From a virus (Duplodnaviria; Heunggongvirae; Uroviricota; Caudoviricetes): 64,000 bases of DNA. Shown in pieces: positions 7,005-37,509 of the stretch (positions are counted from its first letter, which is position 1; every line of letters starts with the position of its first letter). The position numbers and the translations under genes were made by a program. The notes beneath the pieces were generated by a model. That model saw only the letters and a program-made list of their open reading frames with translations. It ran no database searches and was not told the DNA's origin. The DNA is taken from IMG/VR virus record IMGVR_UViG_2541047715_000004; one strand, given 5' to 3'.

Positions 7005-7598
7005 ATGATTGCAGCCGAAAAAATCAAACAGCGAAAGCGCGACAACTCTCTTCGTGACCTCTGGAGAACACCTGACTGGCTGTTTTCTGCCATTCAACGT
7101 TATCTTGGAGTGACATTTGATGTTGACGTTGCCTGCAACAAGGACAATGCGAAGCTGCCTAATTTCATAGGCGTTGAGCGTGATGCTTTGAAATCTGAAT
7201 GGGGACAGCCAGGTACAATTGCCTTCCTCAATCCACCCTACTCCAAAATCTCCCCCTGGATTGATGCGGCTATACGTGAGCAGGCTCGCGGAGTTACAAC
7301 AGTGATGCTAATTCCTCAATCCCTCGATACAAAGTGGTATGAGCGTGCAACAGAGTGTGCGAATGAGACGATTATTCTGTCTGGTGGCCGCGTAGCGTTT
7401 GTCGAGCCTGACGTCAATTTGGGTCAGGTAGAAGTAAACATCAACCCCGGTGGCAGTATGCTCGTTGTTTTTCGAGGATTCTGTCAGGACGCTGGGCACT
7501 CTATAAGCAAGATCCCTTTGGACGTCATGAAAAGTCTGGGAGGGTATGATCCTGCGAATGTGATCAGGAAAAAAAGACAATCAAAGAAGGCTGCTTAG
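7005..7598 (+). CDS. dam: phage-type DNA N6-adenine methyltransferase
   Basis: FLNPPYS motif IV; ~200-aa size typical of small phage Dam enzymes. Confidence 0.7.
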   Translation: MIAAEKIKQRKRDNSLRDLWRTPDWLFSAIQRYLGVTFDVDVACNKDNAKLPNFIGVERDALKSEWGQPGTIAFLNPPYSKISPWIDAAIREQARGVTTVMLIPQSLDTKWYERATECANETIILSGGRVAFVEPDVNLGQVEVNINPGGSMLVVFRGFCQDAGHSISKIPLDVMKSLGGYDPANVIRKKRQSKKAA

Positions 7599-7619
7599 TT
7601 TGTTCTGGCGTCTGTAATT

Positions 7620-7685
7620 AGCCTGCTTCTGTATATATAAATAACTACATATTAATTATTAATATACGGAAGCAGGCTGTTTTAT
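7620..7685 (+). terminator. long hairpin (17-bp arms) followed by T-rich tract
   Basis: AGCCTGCTTCTGTATAT ... ATATACGGAAGCAGGCT then GTTTTAT; a second copy with the same arms is at 37341-37393. Confidence 0.5.
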
Positions 7686-7784
7686 ATCAGAGACTCCCAG
7701 ACCTGAACACCACTACAGAATCCACTAGAACCCCTTCCCAGACGCTTTAAAATCGATTTTATGAACCACTTTAAGGAAACCAAC

Positions 7785-10087: not shown

Positions 10088-10104
10088 GAAAACAATTTGT
10101 TTTG
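10088..10104 (+). promoter_or_regulatory. conserved palindrome GAAAACAA-N-TTGTTTT (family 1)
   Basis: About 23-39 bp upstream of ATG 10127; recurs at 10817, 23557, 23608, 26416, 26900, 27804, 28568, 37428, 37455. Confidence 0.5.
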
Positions 10105-13010: not shown

Positions 13011-16000
13011 CTATATCTGCCCACCTACTCCTTTGAACTTTTCAATAAACGTGACGATTTTCTGGAAAACGGTCTGTTTTTTCGTTTTATATTGCGGGTT
13101 TAACGGACTAAGTTTTGGTAATGTCTCGTTTAATTCTGTGCCATTTTCGGTGGCGTATTCGCGTTTTAAAGACGTGCGAATATAGCGTTTCGCCGCCTCT
13201 TCATTGAGATTTTCTTCTTTTATCAATGCTTCTGCTTCACGTTGCTGTTCGCGTTGAGCAAACGTAAAGAATGCCTCAATGATACTGGCTTTGTCTGGTA
13301 AATCATCCAGGTTCGTTTGCTGAATAAAATCGACCACCAGGCCCTCTTTCGCCCGGTTCCCCAGGCTTGAACGAATTAAGCGTTTGACCTCTTCGATCAT
13401 TTCGCCCTTGCCTTTATTTTGTCTGTTGTGTTCGAAAATCAGTCCAAGGATATAATCCAGGTTTATTTCCTGAGACTTCAGCAAATCGACCTCAAAAACT
13501 ACGTCATCCCAGTCAGTGGTTGATTTCTCTTTTTTCTCAGCTTCTTTCTCACGGCGCTGCCAGTCGCGAATATCGTTATAGGCAGAACGATAATCCTGAA
13601 TCTTGCGTTCAGCAGGGAGACGAATTGTTTGCAATTCAGCGAACTTTTCATCATCCACATAATGTTCTGCTTTGAATTTTTCTACCGCAACAGGATCGCT
13701 AAGATCGATTTGTTGCAGGGCTTTCAGCGTGGCAAATTCATCATAGTTTTGCAGGATGTTCTCGGCACGCAGGTATTCACCAAACAGTTTTACGAAGTCT
13801 TTCTTCTCTTTTTCACTTTCAATACTGGCAGGGTCAGGGAACCGTTGTTCCAGTTCTGAAACTACTGCCATAAAGCCGCGTTTAGCTTCACCAGTGGCAG
13901 CATCTGTAAAGCCTTCCATATACTCAGCATAACTCTTTTCTAACACCACATTTTTAGTATTTTTATCACCAAACAGCGTTATGGCATCAATGGTTGAGCG
14001 TTCCAGATCCCGAAAAGTGACGATGTTACCGAAGGTTTTAGTAGCGTCATAAATGCGGTTGGTACGGGAGAATGCCTGCATCAGGCCGTGAAAACGCAAG
14101 TTTTTATCGACGAATAGCGTGTTCAATGTTGGAGCGTCGAAGCCGGTTAAAAACATCCCAACGACAATTAACAGATCGATATCCTGATTTTTAACCCGTT
14201 GGGCTAAATCACGATAGTAGTTCTGAAAACCGTTACTGTCGGTGCTGAAGTTAGTTTTAAAATAGCTGTTATACTCACGAATTGCAGCGTCAAGAAACTC
14301 TTTAGCACTGCTGTCCATTGCGCTGGTATCAAAAGTTTCATCGGAAATTTCACCAATGGCATTTTGTTCTTCATTGGCGGCAAAGGAGAAGATTGTTGCA
14401 ACACGCAGCGGTTTATAGGTAGCCGATTTATTAGCTGCTTCCTCTTGTAACCGTTTAAACGTCGCGTAATAGGCTTTCGCGGCATCCACGCTACTCACTG
14501 CCAGCATGGCATTAAAGCCTTTGGAACCTGGGAAAGTACGGTGGGTCTTCTGGCGGAAGTTATTCAGAATATATTGCGTAATTTCCTGTATACGCATGGG
14601 ATGAAGAAATGCCTGCTGATTTTCAGCCGCACTCAGTTTTTTCTCGTCGGTTTCTGTCTCTAAAGATTTAAACTGTGGCCGCACATCGTTGTAGTCCACC
14701 TTGAATTTGAGCACTTTTTCATCACGAATCGCATCGGTAATTACATACGAATGCAATTCACGACCAAATACGCTGGCGGTCGTTTCTGAGCCTAAGGCGT
14801 TTTCCGGGAAAATAGGTGTGCCGGTAAAACCAAACTGATAATAGCGTTTGAATTTCTTCTTCAGGTTTTTCTGCGCTTCTCCAAACTGGCTGCGGTGACA
14901 TTCATCAAATATAAACACCACTTGCTGATTGTATACAGGCAGGTCGCTTTCTGCTTTCATCAGGTTATTAAGTTTCTGAATAGTGGTGACGATAATTTTG
15001 TTATCGTCCTTATCCAGATTGCGTTTAAGACCTGCGGTATTTTCCGAGCCGTTGACGCTGTCTGGCGAAAAACGCTTATATTCATTCATGGTCTGGTAAT
15101 CGAGGTCTTTCCTGTCGACCACGAAGAAGACTTTATCAATAAAGTCCAGCTCTGTTGCCAGACGCGCGGCTTTAAAGCTGGTGAGGGTTTTACCTGAACC
15201 GGTAGTGTGCCAGATATACCCACCGCTTTCCGGTTTTGACCAGTTCTTCGCTGTAAAGGAACTCTTAATTTTCCACAGAATGCGCTCAGTGGCGGCAATC
15301 TGGTACGGTCGCATCACCAGTAGCGTTTGGCTAACATCGAATACGCTGTAGTTCACTAAGACATTAAGCAGGGTATGTTTCTGGAAAAAGGTGGCGGTAA
15401 AGTCTTTGAGGTCTTTAATCAGCGTGTTGTCTGATTTCGCCCAATTCATGGTGAAGTCAAAACTGTTTTTATCGCGCTTTGTCGTGTTGGCAAAGTAACG
15501 GGTATCGGTGCCGTTGGAAATGACAAACAGTTGCAGATACTTAAACAGAGAATTTTCGCTGTTAAAACTCTCTTTGCTGTAACGATGTATCTGGTTAAAG
15601 GCCTCACGAATCGCCACGCCGCGCTTTTTCAGTTCGATTTGTACCAGCGGTAAGCCATTAACCAGGATCGTGACGTCATAACGGTTAGCATGAGAACCCG
15701 TCTGTTCAAACTGCTGGATAATCTGCACCTTGTTGCGCATGAGATTCTTTTTATCTATCAAATAGATGTTCTCAAGACGCTCGTCATCAAAAATAAAGTC
15801 GCAAATATAGTCGATATGGATTTTACGGGTCTTATCCAGGATGCCATCGCTCGGGTTATCCAGATACTGCTCCGTGAAACGCCGCCATTCGCTGTCATTA
15901 AACACCACACCATTGAGGTTCTGAAGCTGTTCCCGAACGTTGGCCAGCATCGCCGACTGAGATTTTACGGAAATAAATTCATAGCCCTGATTCCGCAGAT

Positions 16001-16127
16001 CCTGAATCAGTTCACGTTCCAGGTCCGATTCGCTCTGGTAGCTGTCGCCTGTTTGCTCGGCTTTGATGTACTTATCAAGAACGATAAAGTTATTGGATTC
16101 AGCAATGGTGTGTGTCTGATGAGTCAT
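13011..16127 (-). CDS. hsdR: type I restriction enzyme R subunit, type IC (EcoR124-like)
   Basis: 1038 aa; Walker [13 protein letters not shown]-box FDECHRS, helicase motifs; N-terminus [20 protein letters not shown] matches my recollection of EcoR124 HsdR. Confidence 0.95.
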
Positions 16128-16248
16128 AGCGCATCCTTTGTGCCGTCTGGCAAGGGCCGGAAGGGCTTTAAGGGCGACTTCCGGCGTGTAAAAAATAGTC
16201 TCTATATAGACCGGATGTTAAGGTGATCCGGTCGGTAGCAATGGTCAA

Positions 16249-17496
16249 TTAGTTACTGATAGTTTCAGGTTTGGGAAAACTGAACAGTAAATCACGATAG
16301 TACTCGTATTGTTTCTGGCGCAACTCGATTTCACGCGGAAGACCTTCGGTGATGGAATTGGTCAAAGCATCAAATTTATCCAGTAATTTCACTATTTTTT
16401 GTTGTTCAACTAGCGATCTTTCAGGAGAATCAGGAAATGGTACTGGTATCATAAGTTTTCTTAAGTTATCATTATAAAGTCTTTTAATAGTTCCACCTTC
16501 AGATATTCCCCATTTTGCTATTTTATAGAAATAGAATAAATATTTATTTAAAACTATTTTTTCATTATTTTCAATCCAGACAATATTGCTATCCTGGAAA
16601 TATGATTCCCTACCATCAAATATAACAGTCCTGCCGATGGTCCCACTGGCAGAAATCAATACTTCGCCAACTTTAGGATAACTATATTTTTCTTTAAATT
16701 CATTAAATAGTTTTCTAGATATATAGGAATCGGGTTCCTTACCAAATGTCCCAATTTTATAAAATGGAATCTCTCCCTCAGAAGATGTTTGTGATTTTAG
16801 GATTCGTTTACACATACGAACTTCACCAATTTCCCCCAAAGCTTTCCACTCAACCTCACCCTCTTTAAAACTCAACAACTGGTCGCGATAGTAGTTGTAT
16901 TGTTTTTTACGCATGCTAAGCTCAGCGGTAAGCTCAGCGGTAAGTGCAGTAAATTTATCCAGAATCCTGACGATTTCAGACTGGATAGCCAGCGACTTTT
17001 CCGGGTTGTTGGGGCAAGGGATGGGGATAAGTAATTTACCTATATCTTTAGCATACAAATGATAAACAGTAGAACCTTTAACCATTTGCAATATCTTTTT
17101 TTTGTTATTTATTATGAAATTACTTAGATATCTACCATCAACACCAGAGCATCTAATAATCAAAATATCGCCGCCTAAAATAACGCCACTTTCTTGAATG
17201 CAACTAGCTGTAGCCAAACCTCTTGGTGTAACGTCTGACGTTGGCATTAGAACATCATTTTTTTCAGATAGAATTGACTCATTGATTGCTTGGTTTGTTT
17301 TTGAGCATACTTTGTCAATTATGGGACCATAATGAGTGAAAAGCTCACCGTAATGAATACAATATCTATTGCCATCTGGAGTTATTTTTTCTTTAGGTAA
17401 AGACTTCCCTTTTAAAAAAGTTGCTAATTTATTTAATGCTACCCACTCAACCTCAGCCCCATCCAGCAGTTTTTCCAGATAACTCAGCTCGCTCAT
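16249..17496 (-). CDS. hsdS: type I R-M specificity subunit, type IC with two divergent TRDs
   Basis: Conserved N-terminal, central ([29 protein letters not shown]) and C-terminal ([41 protein letters not shown]) regions; AT-rich variable TRDs. Confidence 0.95.
16918..16941 (-). repeat. 2 x 12-bp tandem repeat in hsdS central region, encoding TAEL-TAEL
   Basis: + strand AAGCTCAGCGGT twice, then a degenerate third copy. Confidence 0.85.
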
Positions 17497-19055
17497 GCCT
17501 GTACCTCGCTACCTTCAATCTCAGCAACAATCGCATCAATATCTTTACGCAACTGGTCGATTTTGCTGACCGTGGTTTTCAGCTCAGCATTCAGCTCAGC
17601 GATATCGATAATTTCGCGAGTATCTTTCGCTTCCACATAGCTGCTCACCGACAGGTTATAGTCATTCGCGACAACAGTCTCAAACGCAACAGATTTCGCC
17701 AGATGAGCAACATCTTCCTTGCTGGCAAATACCTGCATAATCTGTTCGATATGAGCATCGGTCAGAATGTTGTTGTTAGTCTCTTTTTTGAACAGTTCGC
17801 TGGCATCAATAAACTGAACTTTGGTATCCGTTTTATGTTTAGACAGCACCAGAATATTGACGGCAATAGTGGTGCCAAAGAACAGATTCGGTGCCAGTGA
17901 AATCACGGTTTCGACATAGTTATTGTCGACCAGATACTGACGGATTTTCTGCTCCGCGCCGCCACGGTAAAAAATGCCTGGGAAGCAGACAATCGCAGCG
18001 CGACCTTTGGCCGAAAGATAGTTCAGCGCATGTAATACAAACGCAAAGTCAGCTTTGGATTTGGGGGCCAGAACGCCAGCCGGGGCAAAACGTTCATCGT
18101 TAATCAGCGTCGGGTCATCGCTGCCAATCCATTTCACCGAATACGGCGGGTTAGAAACGATGGCATCAAACGGTTTTTCATCTCTGAAGTGCGGCTCAGT
18201 CAGTGTATTACCCAGCTTGATATCAAACTTGTCGTAGTTGATGTTGTGCAAAAACATGTTCATACGCGCCAGGTTATAGGTCGTATGGTTGATTTCCTGA
18301 CCAAAAAAACCTTCTTCGATGATATGGTCATCAAACTGTTTTTTCGCCTGCAACAACAGCGAACCGGAGCCTGCTGCCGGGTCGTAGATTTTGTTAACGT
18401 GGGTCTGCCCGTGCATAGCCAGTTGTGCAATCAGCTTAGAGACGTGCTGCGGTGTAAAGAACTCGCCGCCGGACTTACCGGCATTCGCCGCATAGTTAGA
18501 AATCAGGAACTCATAGGCGTCACCGAACAGGTCAATCTGATGTTCATGGAAGTCACCAAGTTTTAGCCCTTCAACCCCTTTCAGAACCGCAGCCAAGCGG
18601 GCATTTTTATCTTTAACGGTGTTACCCAGGCGGTTACTGGTGGTATCGAAATCAGCAAACAAACCTTTGATGTCAGCTTCTGAAGGATAACCGTAAGCAG
18701 AACTTTCGATAGCAACGAAGATGCTGTTTAAATCTGCATTCAGTCTGTCATTAGTATTTGCTTTCGCAGCTACGTTGCAGAAAAGCTGACTGGGGTAGAT
18801 GAAGTAGCCTTTAGTTTTGATGGCATCGTCTTTAATGTCATCAGTAATTACGCTGTCATCCAGTTTCGCATAACAGATACTGTCATCACCGGCTTCAATA
18901 TAACTGGAAAAATTTTCGCTGATAAAACGGTAAAAAAGCGCGCCCAAAACGTACTGCTTAAAATCCCATCCATCGACTGAACCCCTGACATCGTTAGCAA
19001 TTTGCCAGATCTGGCGATGAAGCTCTGCACGTTGTTGAATACTTGTCATTTTCAT
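17493..19055 (-). CDS. hsdM: type I R-M N6-adenine DNA methyltransferase subunit
   Basis: 520 aa; motif [14 protein letters not shown]; stop overlaps hsdS start (ATGA). Confidence 0.95.
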
Positions 19056-23521: not shown

Positions 23522-23556
23522 CATATAGACACAACCCCTTCTGACTTTAACAAACC

Positions 23557-23575
23557 CTAAAACAATTTGTTTTCT
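23557..23575 (+). promoter_or_regulatory. family 1 palindrome (AAAACAATTTGTTTT)
   Basis: First phage-type motif right of metG, about 80 bp after the metG stop. Confidence 0.5.
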
Positions 23576-23607
23576 ACCTTTTGTTGATTGAGATAATAAG
23601 CCACATA

Positions 23608-23626
23608 AGAAAACAAATTGTTTCGG
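23608..23626 (+). promoter_or_regulatory. family 1 palindrome (GAAAACAAATTGTTTC)
   Basis: Second copy, 11 bp before ATG 23637. Confidence 0.5.
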
Positions 23627-23636
23627 AGTTGTTGAA

Positions 23637-23936
23637 ATGTTGAACATTACCCAAGCCTACCAGGTGGCATTGATCAGTTCATCTCATACATCAGAGGAAG
23701 ATGCTCGCCGATTCATGATCGCAAGCAATGAGCTGGATTGGGTTTCACAAATTGATGGCGGTTGTATTGTCCACGCCGGGTTACAGGATGATGTCTGGAA
23801 AGATGACTTGCGTCGATATGGTATATCCGAAGGCGCGATTGCTAACATTCAGAAAGTACTTGATGTAGGCTTTGACTCTGTACATTTTGATTGTGGTGCA
23901 CCGGTCGTTGAAGGGCTAGAGTGCTGGCAATGGTAA
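23637..23936 (+). CDS. hypothetical protein
   Basis: 99-aa ORF after tandem family 1 palindromes. Confidence 0.45.
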   Translation: MLNITQAYQVALISSSHTSEEDARRFMIASNELDWVSQIDGGCIVHAGLQDDVWKDDLRRYGISEGAIANIQKVLDVGFDSVHFDCGAPVVEGLECWQW

Positions 23937-30927: not shown

Positions 30928-31449
30928 TTAAAACGGAAGGATTCGTTCAACCCAATCGAAGAAAATAAGTATTTTTCTACCGTCTTCCAACTTAAGTGTG
31001 ACTAGACAGGCGTCAACGCCATCTGACGTTCCCTCAATTTCGCGACCGTCTGCCATGTAGACCCTTATAGATTTGCCGTTTTGGTAAGCCTGACGACATA
31101 TCTTAAAAAAGTCACGACGTGATGGCTGATTAACCATCTGTTCATTGTTTAGCGTTAGTCGACCTGTGAATGAAGTGTCAACCTCTTCTATGCCCGACTC
31201 AATTGTGCTAATGCGCTCAAGAGGGAGCCTTATACGATTTGTGTTGCTAAGCGGATCTGGTGTGAGGTTCAGCTTATTTCTTGCGCTCAATAGCCCGTAG
31301 ACATACATGCAAAACACTTGGCCGTCTTCGAGAGTGACTCTTACAGGAAATTTTGCACTCCGCCAGAAGAGCAAGGTGCGCTCAGCATGTTCGTAGTCTC
31401 GCGGCCAGACTTCAGCCGGTATGCCGTAGGTGATGTCCAATGTTCTCAT
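30928..31449 (-). CDS. hypothetical protein
   Basis: 173-aa ORF, overlaps upstream gene by 4 nt. Confidence 0.45.
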   Translation of the reverse strand: MRTLDITYGIPAEVWPRDYEHAERTLLFWRSAKFPVRVTLEDGQVFCMYVYGLLSARNKLNLTPDPLSNTNRIRLPLERISTIESGIEEVDTSFTGRLTLNNEQMVNQPSRRDFFKICRQAYQNGKSIRVYMADGREIEGTSDGVDACLVTLKLEDGRKILIFFDWVERILPF

Positions 31450-34060: not shown

Positions 34061-34142
34061 AAACCTCTTTCCTTAGTGCCTTTTGTATGTTATTTGGCTA
34101 TTATAATAAGTAAGTGATTACTTAGTGGATTGTAGCAATAAA

Positions 34143-34823
34143 ATGGATGTAAAAATCACGATTTTGCAGGTTGATGTTGCCAACCTTCGCCCGAATACCT
34201 GGAACACCAATTCGGTTGGTGCGCAGAATTTTGAAAAACTGAAAGGTTCTATCGAAAAATTGGGCTTTTTTAAGCCAATTTTGGCTCGTGAACTTGAAGA
34301 TGGATTTTTTGAAATCCTAGGCGGCGAACATCGCTGGCGTGCTGCTATTGAGCAAGGAATTTCAACGGTTCCGGTGCTTTCTGTGGGCAAAATTAGCGAT
34401 GTCGTAGCTAAACAGATGTCACTGGTGGACAACGAGCGATACGGTGAAGACGACCAAATCGCATTGCAACGCTTCATTGAAGAAATTCAGTCAGAACTTG
34501 ACTATCAACTGTCTGAAATCGCCCCGTATGACGACGAAATCTCGATGGTTTTAGCAAAAGAGGCGGCAATCGACCTTGAAGCACTGGAGGCGTTGTCTCG
34601 TGGTAGTGATGAGCCTGTCGATACCGACAAACGAGAGAAAACCGAACGTGTGGGGGCGGAACATCAGACCATGCGCTTCAAAGTAACTTTCGATGCGTCA
34701 GATCGTGTTGCAGAAACCATAAAAAACATCATCAAAGAGCAGGCTATTAACACCGGTAATGAAATGGAGAACGCTGGTGAGGCTCTGGTGTGGCTGGTCG
34801 ACTACTACAAGGAGCGTATGTAA
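34143..34823 (+). CDS. ParB/Srx-like N-terminal domain protein
   Basis: ILGGEHRWRAA box; start set to ATG 34143 (track start is GTG 34125). Confidence 0.6.
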   Translation: MDVKITILQVDVANLRPNTWNTNSVGAQNFEKLKGSIEKLGFFKPILARELEDGFFEILGGEHRWRAAIEQGISTVPVLSVGKISDVVAKQMSLVDNERYGEDDQIALQRFIEEIQSELDYQLSEIAPYDDEISMVLAKEAAIDLEALEALSRGSDEPVDTDKREKTERVGAEHQTMRFKVTFDASDRVAETIKNIIKEQAINTGNEMENAGEALVWLVDYYKERM

Positions 34824-35491
34824 TGACCAAAAAGTTTGAAATCGTATATCGCGACCCGGCAGATCTTATTCCCTATGAGATGAATGCCAAAAAGCATGAT
34901 GAACAGCAGATCCGAGATCTGGCCGCAGCCATTAAAAAGCGCGGATTTGACCAGCCAATTACGGTCGATAAGAACGACGTAATTATTACTGGCCACGGCC
35001 GCCGTGAGGCTGCAATTTTTGCTGGACTTGAGCGCGTGCCGGTTATTGTTCGCGATGATCTGAGTGATGACGAGGTACGTGCAAAGCGCCTTGAAGATAA
35101 CCGACTTGCCAGCATTGATTACGATGCAATTAAGCTACAGAAAGAGCTTGAGTCGCTTGTTCTGGACGATATCGAGGTTTTCGGCTTCGAAGAGCGTGAG
35201 TTGAATGTTCTCGTTGGCAGTATGACAGAAGAAATGGACACCGACTCGCTAGTTATCGATCTTGGCGAAGAAACTAAACGACAGAAGGATGAACACACCG
35301 AGATCAGTCGTGAAGTTGCAGCGGAAGAAGTACGTGTTGTCGACGTATTGGGCTTTAAAACGCTCCCTGCTGGCTCTGCCATTGTTGTTGGTGATTTGCT
35401 TGCCCATATGGAAGAAATGACGGGAGAAAGCGGGGTAGACGCATTTGTGGCATATGCGGAGAAGATCTCTTCCGGGGAGATGGCTGCATGA
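34823..35491 (+). CDS. ParB/Srx-like N-terminal domain protein (second copy)
   Basis: ITGHGRREAA box; TAATG overlap with upstream gene. Confidence 0.6.
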   Translation: MTKKFEIVYRDPADLIPYEMNAKKHDEQQIRDLAAAIKKRGFDQPITVDKNDVIITGHGRREAAIFAGLERVPVIVRDDLSDDEVRAKRLEDNRLASIDYDAIKLQKELESLVLDDIEVFGFEERELNVLVGSMTEEMDTDSLVIDLGEETKRQKDEHTEISREVAAEEVRVVDVLGFKTLPAGSAIVVGDLLAHMEEMTGESGVDAFVAYAEKISSGEMAA

Positions 35492-36153
35492 GCAAATACA
35501 TCATCAACGTATCGTTTCAGACACGCGTAAATAAAACCACGCGCACGTTGGAAATCGCTGAGTCGTTCGGGCTTGGCCTGGACGAAAAAGAGTGGACGCT
35601 TTACGACAATCTGGAGCTGGAAGTGAAGCAGGGCGATGTGGTGTACATCACCGGCCAATCCGGTTCCGGCAAATCCGTTGTGCTGCGCGAGTTGCAACGA
35701 CAGATGAAGGATGAAGGGCTGTCTGTAGCCTCCATCGATGATTTTACCTTCGATAATGAGGTTAACGTCATCGATCAGTTGGGCAAAACGACCAGTGATG
35801 CGCTTGGGTTGTTATCTATGGCTGGTCTGAACGATGCATATCTGTTTGTTCGCAAGCCTTCTGAAATGTCAGACGGCCAGAAATATCGTCTCAAGATTGC
35901 CAAACTGATTGAGTCAGGCGCTAAAGTATGGGCTGCTGACGAGTTCGGCGCTGTTCTCGACCGTGTAACCGCTCAGGTTGTGGCGTCTAACCTCCAGCGT
36001 GCCGCTCGAAAGGTTGGTGCGACGGTAATGGTGGCGACGACTCACGAAGACCTGAAGAACGCGCTGCGCCCTGATATGCAGATCACCAAGCACTACAAAG
36101 AACGCGTGAAGGTGGAATATCACAATGGTAGTCATGATGAGGTCCATTCATGA
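35488..36153 (+). CDS. ABC-type ATPase without transmembrane domain
   Basis: Walker A GQSGSGKS, signature-like SDGQKYRL, Walker B VWAADEFGAVLD; ATGA overlap. Confidence 0.6.
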   Translation: MSKYIINVSFQTRVNKTTRTLEIAESFGLGLDEKEWTLYDNLELEVKQGDVVYITGQSGSGKSVVLRELQRQMKDEGLSVASIDDFTFDNEVNVIDQLGKTTSDALGLLSMAGLNDAYLFVRKPSEMSDGQKYRLKIAKLIESGAKVWAADEFGAVLDRVTAQVVASNLQRAARKVGATVMVATTHEDLKNALRPDMQITKHYKERVKVEYHNGSHDEVHS

Positions 36154-37040
36154 CGGACATCATCATTAAACGCTACCGCCCTGAAGAGTTTCCGCGTCAT
36201 CTGGACTTTCTGGAGCGAATGACTGTTACAAAGGGAACTGTAGAGGACTGGCACGCTCTTAAATCGCTTCACTACAAAACAGACGGCAAACCTTTCGCGC
36301 CAACATACTATCGCTGCGAACTGGATGACCGTCTGGTGGGCGTCGTGGTTATGGCTTACCCGAAACTTCTGCTGGCACCTCGCCATCGCATGTTTCCTAA
36401 GTTGAAACCAACTACCAATACCACCGTGGCTAACCAGTACTGGGGTCGGTACGTGAATAACAACTTTGCGGTGATCAGCCGCTCAGTTGTGGATACTCAG
36501 TACCGTGGCGTAGGCGTCTCTTATCGAATGATTAACCTGGTTAGCAGGATGCATGACCGGCCAATCATTGAGATCCAGTCATCGATGAGCAAATACAATC
36601 CCTTCGCCATGAAAGCAGGGTTTAAGTTCATCCGCCCTGAGCGACCGAAGAGCTATGAAAGTGCACTGCGTGTATTCCAGCGCCATTTCCGTTCCGACCC
36701 GGGTGATAACGAGGCGATCGTCAAAGAGTTGTTCGCAATGAGCGAGTCTCGTCGTCGCCGTGCACTGCGTGATCTGGTGGCGGACTACCACAAGAACAGT
36801 TCCCTGGCAAAAGCTGGGCGGAATCGTGGCACGACGATTCAGGACATTGCCGACAGTCTGGTGGACGAGGCCAGCATTGTGAAGCTGCTCAAGGACATTC
36901 ACAACCTGAGCTTTACGTCTCCGTTGTATGGTGTGTACCGAAACCCTGACTTTGGCCGTCGACTGCCTGACACGCTGCCACTGCTGGCATTCGACAAACA
37001 ACCTTTGGATAAACCGTTAGAAATTGCTTTACCGGCATAA
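36150..37040 (+). CDS. hypothetical protein with possible GNAT acyltransferase motif
   Basis: VISRSVVDTQYRGVGVSYRMINLV resembles GNAT motif A; ATGA overlap with ATPase gene. Confidence 0.4.
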   Translation: MTDIIIKRYRPEEFPRHLDFLERMTVTKGTVEDWHALKSLHYKTDGKPFAPTYYRCELDDRLVGVVVMAYPKLLLAPRHRMFPKLKPTTNTTVANQYWGRYVNNNFAVISRSVVDTQYRGVGVSYRMINLVSRMHDRPIIEIQSSMSKYNPFAMKAGFKFIRPERPKSYESALRVFQRHFRSDPGDNEAIVKELFAMSESRRRRALRDLVADYHKNSSLAKAGRNRGTTIQDIADSLVDEASIVKLLKDIHNLSFTSPLYGVYRNPDFGRRLPDTLPLLAFDKQPLDKPLEIALPA

Positions 37041-37049
37041 GGATTTGCC

Positions 37050-37316
37050 ATGACGTTAACCGATAAACAAAAGGACATCATCAAAACGCTCAATCTCGGT
37101 TATGAGCGAGGTCATCTACTTGACCTGGACGAATTGCTTGAAGTTTTGCCGTACAAGACAACCAAGCAAAGTATCCAGTTCTCAATTCGCGCTCTGATAA
37201 AAAAGGGGCTGGTGGAGAAAGGGCATACGCGCCAACGCAGTGACAATCGCTATCACCGCCGGACTCTTGGGTTAACCACTTTAGGTCGAGCCAAAGCGAA
37301 GTTACTGGTGATGTAA
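37050..37316 (+). CDS. small basic protein, putative DNA-binding
   Basis: 88 aa, basic C-terminus. Confidence 0.4.
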   Translation: MTLTDKQKDIIKTLNLGYERGHLLDLDELLEVLPYKTTKQSIQFSIRALIKKGLVEKGHTRQRSDNRYHRRTLGLTTLGRAKAKLLVM

Positions 37317-37340
37317 TCGGTCTGGGAGCTTATTTAAAGA

Positions 37341-37393
37341 CCTGCTTCTGTATATAAATAATAAGTAACTTATTAAATATATACGGAAGCAGG
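37341..37393 (+). repeat. second copy of long hairpin with same 16-17-bp arms as 7620-7678
   Basis: CCTGCTTCTGTATATA ... TATATACGGAAGCAGG, same arm mismatch as copy 1. Confidence 0.6.
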
Positions 37394-37454
37394 CTTCGTA
37401 AGACATGCCAGACCTAATTAAACACCCCAGAAAACAAGTTGGTTAGCAGATGCA

Positions 37455-37473
37455 GTAAACAAGTTGTTTTAGA
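37455..37473 (+). promoter_or_regulatory. family 1 palindrome (GTAAACAAGTTGTTTTA), plus half-site at 37428-37445
   Basis: Upstream of ATG 37510. Confidence 0.4.
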
Positions 37474-37509
37474 GCGCATGGACGCGCTCTGTGTGTTTTA
37501 GAGGGATCT

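Follow-up and report, generated by a model that had tools for sequence, protein, structure and literature searches.

A three-copy conserved palindromic spacer between the main gene blocks of an SSU5-type phage-plasmid

In an SSU5-type phage-plasmid, the main gene blocks are set apart by a conserved palindromic spacer that is present in three copies, an arrangement that calls for no new kind of biology. Two of these copies (A and B) are located within the 64,000 nt stretch of DNA analysed here (hereafter the window), and the third (C) lies in the part of the element beyond it. We give about an even chance to the interpretation that these hairpins work as RNA, forming long stem-loops that terminate transcription intrinsically or insulate the blocks at their boundaries and that possibly serve as RNase III sites on read-through transcripts. 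The flanks of copies A and B share 97-99% identity with Escherichia phage Cyrano (pLF82), CMS-2020a and PhiR41_1, and 70-78% identity with Klebsiella pJN2-26-type elements and Salmonella phage SSU5, and the window is 99% identical to Cyrano. These flank identities place the window within an E. coli phage-plasmid of the SSU5/pHCM2 type, of which it covers 64 kb, the whole element being ~108 kb in size.

Copy A (7620-7678, + strand) consists of 17-nt arms, AGCCTGCTTCTGTATAT (7620-7636) and ATATACGGAAGCAGGCT (7662-7678), with 94% complementarity across a 25-nt A/T loop, and starts 22 nt past the stop codon of an ORF for a dam-like adenine methyltransferase (7005-7598). Copy B (37341-37393, + strand) is a 53-bp near-palindrome with 88% complementary arms, CCTGCTTCTGTATATAAATAATAAGT (37341-37366) and ACTTATTAAATATATACGGAAGCAGG (37368-37393), followed by the tail CTTCGTAAG, which lacks a T-run. 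It is located 24 nt past an 88-aa ORF (37050-37316) and 116 nt ahead of terS (37510), so that the gene context given in the first-pass annotation, after the dam-like gene and after a small ORF just before the terminase genes, stands. The identical arms reported there are found only in part: the left arm CCTGCTTCTGTATATA is the same in both copies, but a single base separates the two right arms (AATATACGGAAGCAGG in A versus TATATACGGAAGCAGG in B; starting AATATACGG and TATATACGG, respectively), which had been overlooked. When the arms were searched for with up to three mismatches, only four half-sites were found in the 64 kb, namely those of A and B (chance expectation: 0.25-0.31; four or more matches in 0/100 shuffles), and the resemblance of the two hairpins is thus real, as no shuffle reproduced it. 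Folded as + strand RNA, copies A and B have free energies of -29.6 kcal/mol (z-score: -7.1) and -30.3 kcal/mol (z-score: -9.1), respectively, and both were recovered by nhmmer in the window (A, + strand, e-value: 4.8e-16; B, e-value: 3.5e-17).

With Cyrano standing in for the part of the element beyond the window, a third copy was located at 31157-31213 of that genome, between the parA operon and the gene heading the helicase-primase block. The arms of copy C pair perfectly (-33.2 kcal/mol), and the z-scores of all three copies range from -7 to -9. A profile built from 87 distinct hairpin-plus-flank sequences detected exactly three copies each in Cyrano, SSU5 and pJN2-26 and two in the window, with no other significant match in these four sequences, and every copy found scored higher on the + strand. 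The search of the rest of the element for further copies therefore yielded copy C and none beyond it, and the hairpins constitute one specific conserved sequence family with shared synteny rather than two unrelated structures. Among IMG/VR loci collected via neighbouring proteins, and thus independently of the hairpin itself, the element is present in 68/80 A sites, 74/76 B sites and 78/80 C sites. The loci without a hairpin include two whose contigs start inside copy C (L173 and L186) and two whose contigs end just upstream of copy A (L117 and L152). The same three syntenic sites, all intergenic, are occupied in E. coli, Salmonella, Klebsiella, Kluyvera and Yersinia relatives, always in one orientation, which is that of the co-directional genes at all three positions. 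The shared architecture comprises a core of ~55 bp in which G+C-rich arms (CCTGCTTCYGTATATA) enclose a near-pure A/T interior of ~35 bp, with the arm centres about 38 bp apart, and as the A/T spacer is variable the total hairpin length across relatives is 49-57 bp.

Outside this family the element is rare. A degenerate two-arm pattern run on 596 Gb of species-representative genomes matched ten loci, all with SSU5-type flanks. Kluyvera and Buttiauxella contributed loci, as did a Yersinia pestis contig of pMT1 size and a metagenome-assembled genome labelled as Bacillota (two contigs); the only named isolates among the ten are thus those of Kluyvera, Buttiauxella and Yersinia. The element occurs in 260 of 5426 complete E. 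coli genomes, where 1020/1022 of its places are plasmid-borne (the listed plasmids being mostly ~100-120 kb in size) and 2/1022 are chromosomal. Many unrelated hairpins of similar sequence in the host genome, which the first-pass annotation had named as grounds for regarding this as a generic repeat, were looked for, and the element proved to be nearly absent from chromosomes. A REP- or MITE-like mobile or dispersed host repeat is ruled out by this distribution.

The minimum-energy folds contain 16-18 paired arm positions and a further five to seven inner pairs, which amounts to the roughly 20 bp or more of interrupted double-stranded RNA that marks an RNase III site, and the CCUGC/GCAGG base of the stem closes a stable stem-loop of the kind found in intrinsic terminators. 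Furthermore, the consensus structure at sites A and B includes an outer helix of 7-8 bp (GTCTGGGA/TCCCAGAC), bringing the whole element to ~100 nt. At copy A, where it is based on the RNAalifold consensus of nine diverse site-A sequences, its left strand is TTCTGGCG (7603-7610, + strand), of which TCTGG pairs with CCAGA at 7697-7701, and its right strand is CTCCCAGACC (7694-7703, + strand), the reverse complement of GGTCTGGGAG. The latter sequence forms the left strand at copy B (37319-37328, + strand), opposite CCAGACC (37408-37414, + strand). In one lineage the outer helix has changed to AACTG/CAGTT at B only, with site A on the same contig keeping GTCTG/CAGAC, and the constraint therefore acts in cis and not via a shared trans-acting reader. 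Similarly, distant versions of site A carry altered yet complementary arms (GCCTTGCTCCCATA/TATGGGAGCAAGGC and GCCGTGTTCCCATA/TATCGGAGCACGGC), and a Klebsiella copy A carries a compensated CTTTCG/CGAAAG. Because of these compensatory changes in both arms and outer helix, pairing of the two is, on comparative sequence evidence, under selection. The U-run of copies A and C falls inside the outer helix, and the latter can therefore form only in read-through RNA. A strand test by wobble pairs and folding energy gave outcomes that differ among the sites, with the - strand being more stable at A and the + strand at B and C, and it leaves RNA and DNA roles unseparated; given this inconsistent energy asymmetry, the wobble pairs fail to single out the + strand RNA.

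A divergent arrangement is found in the Klebsiella plasmid NZ_CP032196 (AR_0097), where the left arm is gone from sites A and C and only a remnant of the right arm is left, beside which there is an ordinary terminator made up of a G+C hairpin plus T-run. The hairpin of copy B is still present in imperfect form and is followed here by a T-rich tail, and an altered right arm, TATAGGAGCCAGGC, is common to all three sites. These ordinary terminators beside the remnants suggest that termination is the function that was kept in this lineage. Pattern scans of the two most divergent site-A lineages (L167 and L168) gave the A site only, with no matching plasmid record, and as such concerted and independent evolution of the sites can be judged only in the AR_0097 plasmid.

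The sequence-specific function proposed in the first-pass annotation rested on a mismatch shared by A and B, namely a T opposite a G at arm position 9, which would be a G-U wobble in + strand RNA. This argument fails, since position 9 varies freely in both arms: among 69 distinct hairpins the pair is C-G in 19, T.G in 30, T-A in 10 and C.A in 10, counts which fit independent Y/R variation of the two arms, and there is no mismatch at this position in Cyrano copy C or SSU5 copy B. The T.G pair common to A and B is, by these counts, the commonest state of a polymorphic site and a neutral polymorphism. In the same 69 hairpins, positions 1-4, 7 and 10-14 are nearly invariant, while positions 5, 6 and 9 vary in both arms, mostly one-sidedly, with one-sided changes outnumbering compensated ones at positions 5 and 6. 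Judged from this alignment, the primary sequence of the arms is conserved far beyond what pairing alone needs. The arm also contains CTGTATATA, which is half of the SOS-box consensus recognized by LexA. A LexA box is nonetheless ruled out, as the T of its CTG is polymorphic (C in 29/69 left arms) and the ACAG partner is absent at the right spacing.

Several lines of evidence favour a terminator-type role, against the earlier view of the hairpins as something other than generic terminators. The stem of copy A is directly followed by a T-run (GTTTTATA; 7679-7686, + strand), and the site-A tails of nearly all relatives read CTGTTTT, CTTTTT or CTTTTCC. Taking sites A and C together, four to seven T residues follow the stem in almost all relatives (CTGTTTT, CTTTTT, TCTTTT). 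The tails of copy B (CTTCG, CTCTC, TTCTG) are without a T-run, the divergent Klebsiella lineage being the sole exception. A simple terminator scan (threshold: 5 T in 8 bases, with loop limits) calls none of these hairpins, their stems being longer and their loops larger than it allows, and their T-runs falling short. In RNA-seq data for the LF82 lysogen (PMC9928086, S1 table), CYRAN_28, CYRAN_29 and CYRAN_30 upstream of copy C have 50, 89 and 55 normalised reads, respectively, as against 6.2 for CYRAN_31, 193 nt further on past C, where the background is 9.8; in one condition the log2 value falls from 10.4 to 2.6 across the hairpin (PMC9928086, S1 table). Expression thus drops 9- to about 230-fold across C, as measured by RNA-seq at the level of whole genes, and the simple scan of the intergenic region at C found no other terminator-like structure. 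Across copy B the same per-gene data show only a two- to four-fold fall, close to background, and at copy A there is no upstream signal to lose. Termination at a block boundary therefore has gene-level support at C, and we infer it for A. The first-pass interpretation is thus supported in part, in that the hairpins are one specific conserved family and copy B, without a T-run, may do something other than simply terminate; the mismatch argument fails, and the T-runs at A and C, the drop across C and the canonical terminators of the divergent lineage lean towards termination.

A canonical intrinsic terminator outside the repeat is located at 37470-37499 (+ strand), 77 nt downstream of copy B and just before the ribosome-binding site of terS, with an 8-bp G+C stem followed by TGTGTGTTTT. 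The stem covaries among relatives (GCGC/GCGC to GCAC/GTGC). Its position ahead of terS suggests that transcription reaches the late operon either through antitermination or by starting at a regulated promoter immediately upstream of it.

We envisage that a gene block transcribed on the + strand would end in a stem-loop of approximately -30 kcal/mol. The copies that carry a U-run, A downstream of dam and C downstream of the parA operon, would serve as factor-independent terminators or insulators between blocks, with C barring transcription of the plasmid-maintenance genes from entering the lytic replication genes during lysogeny. Copy B would guard entry to the terminase/late operon. Lacking a U-run it is probably weak on its own, and hence a weak terminator, pause site or RNA-end structure, which the canonical terminator 77 nt downstream would back up. 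In read-through RNA, as at lambda sib/tI, the outer helix could complete an extended, interrupted duplex of the sort that RNase III processes. As copy B is kept without a T-run, the same hairpin is conserved where simple termination is not expected, and this copy may do something other than terminate.

The near invariance of the arms at three sites across genera, with variation falling at the same positions of both arms and mostly uncompensated, is also the pattern of conserved half-sites seen in operators and centromeres. The hairpins could, as such, be double-stranded DNA sites at which a protein of the phage-plasmid binds both arms, either as an operator or roadblock or as a dispersed centromere-like site comparable to those of N15, although we consider this rather unlikely. 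Conservation of copy B without a T-run would be in keeping with such a site, a roadblock would also account for the expression drop across C, and the single altered right arm at all sites of the divergent Klebsiella plasmid is what co-evolution with a reader, or gene conversion, would give. As candidate binders, with the same low probability, we consider the winged-helix protein of 88 aa, a ParB-like protein and a repressor. The genes for two of these are close at hand, as the winged-helix ORF ends 24 nt upstream of B and two ParB_N proteins are encoded 2-3 kb upstream. The AlphaFold model of the 88-aa protein (pLDDT: 81.5, fair confidence) is a minimal winged helix, and a fold search matched it best to regulators of the MarR family and to small winged-helix proteins of archaea (TM: 0.69-0.76). 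Its sequence has no significant match in the PDB and belongs to no Pfam family, and homologues outside SSU5-type elements were not found. The DNA-binding-like character earlier ascribed to this ORF is consistent with the predicted fold, which makes it a candidate DNA-binding-type protein. A binding site fits less well with other features, however. The ~38 bp between arm centres and the variable A/T spacer would be awkward for a single MarR-type dimer, the compensation of the outer helix at one site only points to pairing in cis, the orientation is conserved with T-runs on one side only, and in one lineage ordinary terminators adjoin the degraded remnants of A and C.

Moreover, a different and far more abundant sequence, the 13-bp palindrome AAACAANTTGTTT, looks like the dispersed operator of a dimeric regulator in this element. 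Eleven copies (13 nt each) are found in the window, at 10090, 10819, 23560, 23611, 25224, 26419, 26903, 27806, 28570, 37432 and 37457, where 0.65 would be expected, a number reached in 0/100 shuffles. At least seven of them are situated within about 55 nt upstream of + strand start codons, mostly of small genes, and two lie between hairpin B and terS. The longest inverted repeat of the window (23546-23637; 30-nt arms, 80% complementary, 32 nt apart) holds two of these palindromes and is located just upstream of an ORF at 23637. The region upstream of copy B (34125-37040) is an operon encoding the two ParB_N-domain proteins and two ABC-type ATPase-like proteins, of which just the first has an ABC Pfam domain; for the second, the sole match is a PHROG whose annotation is ABC ATP-binding subunit. 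In this element, parA (Cyrano 29307) is located ~30 kb from the operon.

In a further reading, to which we assign a lower probability still, the three hairpins would be conditional, sequence-specific control points which are opened or closed together at the switch from maintenance to lytic growth. The reader would be a factor encoded by the phage-plasmid that recognizes the conserved arms together with the upstream GGTCTGGGAG box, whether at the RNA level, as with lambda nut/sib, or as a roadblock on the DNA, and copy B would be a loading site that lets transcription pass the terminator before terS.

It is very unlikely, in our assessment, that the hairpins function as DNA structures, that is as cruciforms or single-strand hairpins in packaging, lytic replication or recombination, with B being a cos or pac site by the terminase genes, or the copies being A/T-cored sites at which the helicase-primase and T4-like recombination machinery of the element unwinds or primes the DNA. 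The locations would suit such roles, B being directly upstream of terS/terL and C directly upstream of the helicase-primase block, and so would the ~35-bp A/T stretch between G+C clamps and a folding energy without consistent strand preference. The GenBank records of SSU5 and Cyrano furthermore begin in the loop of copy B, and joining the two ends of each restores the full 55-bp element. A cos site must be unique, however, which three near-identical copies are not. The N-terminal domain of TerL is T4-type, and among characterised proteins those closest to it, at about 25% identity, are Jersey-, HK578- and T5-like rather than cos terminases of the lambda, HK97 or P2 type, and other virion-derived or plasmid records start away from B. 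As the unrelated contigs L173 and L186 start inside copy C, breaks in the repeat look like artefacts of assembly or linearisation. Many copies of the 88-aa gene in draft E. coli assemblies are likewise annotated as 'partial', which indicates that contigs often end near copy B. A cos site at B was rejected on the grounds of copy number, TerL type, record starts and the breaks inside C. The papers searched report no SSU5 termini and gave no match for SSU5 with cohesive ends, PhageTerm or a cos site; four of them mention SSU5 together with 'headful'. A protelomerase target (telRL) was also rejected, since the palindrome is imperfect and present three times and the related plasmid records are circular; no protelomerase is annotated in Cyrano, SSU5 or pJN2-26.

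There is, finally, a small probability that the element does little by itself and arose by duplication, an ancestral spacer made up of terminator and promoter having been copied to three sites, homogenized by gene conversion and used mainly as a junction for module swapping. In many E. coli elements C equals B over all 55 bp, although it differs in Cyrano, Salmonella and Klebsiella, and upstream of C there are 24 unrelated contexts among 56 distinct entries, with the hairpin and its downstream flank remaining constant. A passive origin is difficult to reconcile with the retention of all three positions in nearly every relative over 70-99% nucleotide divergence, with a hairpin that is better conserved than its flanks, with compensatory changes that show selection on pairing, and with complete genomes that have neither extra nor missing copies. 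The terminator or insulator role remains our preferred interpretation.

Additional features can be observed around the hairpins. The 45 nt immediately upstream of C, which make up these differing contexts (Cyrano L006 31100-31160; IMG/VR loci L171-L250), mark a cargo-exchange hotspot, and a TCTGG motif ~15 nt before hairpin C is kept in most of these contexts. A conserved promoter-like stretch is located 70-90 nt downstream of copies A and C (7736-7753 in the window; about 31270-31295 in Cyrano L006), in which CTCCAG(A/T)CGCT is followed by a -10-like hexamer (TAAAAT, TAGAAT, TATCAT or TATGAT) and a good -35 is absent. It may represent an activator-dependent promoter that starts the next gene block. 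The window also harbors, at 13011-19055 on the - strand, a complete type I restriction-modification system of the EcoR124 type (HsdR, 1038 aa; HsdS, 415 aa; HsdM, 520 aa). As such genes are absent from the annotation of the otherwise near-identical Cyrano, the system is probably strain-specific defence cargo.

Phage-plasmids of the SSU5/pHCM2 type are common in clinical and animal Enterobacteriaceae, and three insulator-type hairpins provide a simple map of their transcription blocks which aids annotation. The hairpin at site C marks the junction of cargo-gene exchange, and the repeated hairpins explain why draft assemblies and some database records break there. They also represent three defined targets for studying how the element silences its lytic genes while living as a plasmid, and if a specific factor does read them, they would offer a handle on the plasmid-to-phage switch.

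Among the known systems that come closest, the hairpins resemble intrinsic terminators in their stable stem-loop with a G+C-rich base, the U-run at A and C, their position at the 3′ end of co-directional gene blocks and the expression drop across C. Unlike these, they have a far longer stem (about 25 interrupted pairs) with an A/T-only interior, one sequence recurs at three sites and in several genera, copy B has no U-run and the standard scan misses them. A search of the window against Rfam gave no family at the gathering score, the hairpins matching only sub-threshold to microRNA-precursor and other long-hairpin models, and a literature search for the arm sequences gave no match. In lambda sib/tI, the U-run lies within an outer helix that forms only in read-through RNA, and the elements described here likewise combine a terminator-type hairpin with flanking complementarity that can extend it to a long interrupted duplex only in read-through RNA. 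The RNase III hairpins of T7 are alike in that several similar hairpins lie between the gene blocks of one phage genome. There is, however, no sequence similarity to either, and the likeness to RNase III sites rests on the predicted fold. The plasmid prophage N15 carries dispersed inverted-repeat centromere sites, and is likewise a phage-plasmid in which a single palindrome recurs a few times at distant places in the genome. The present element differs in that its arms are split by a long A/T spacer, its T-runs and orientation are conserved and cis-compensatory changes favour pairing. The PeSL (promoter-early stem-loop) cassettes of T4-type phages, which Arbiol et al. reportedly described in 2010 as occurring in dozens of copies and being excised as mini-circles, also consist of a repeated stem-loop with a conserved promoter-like stretch downstream, situated at junctions where neighbouring cargo genes differ between relatives, as is the case at site C. 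The SSU5-type element differs from these in having three fixed copies instead of dozens and a promoter-like stretch that is putative.
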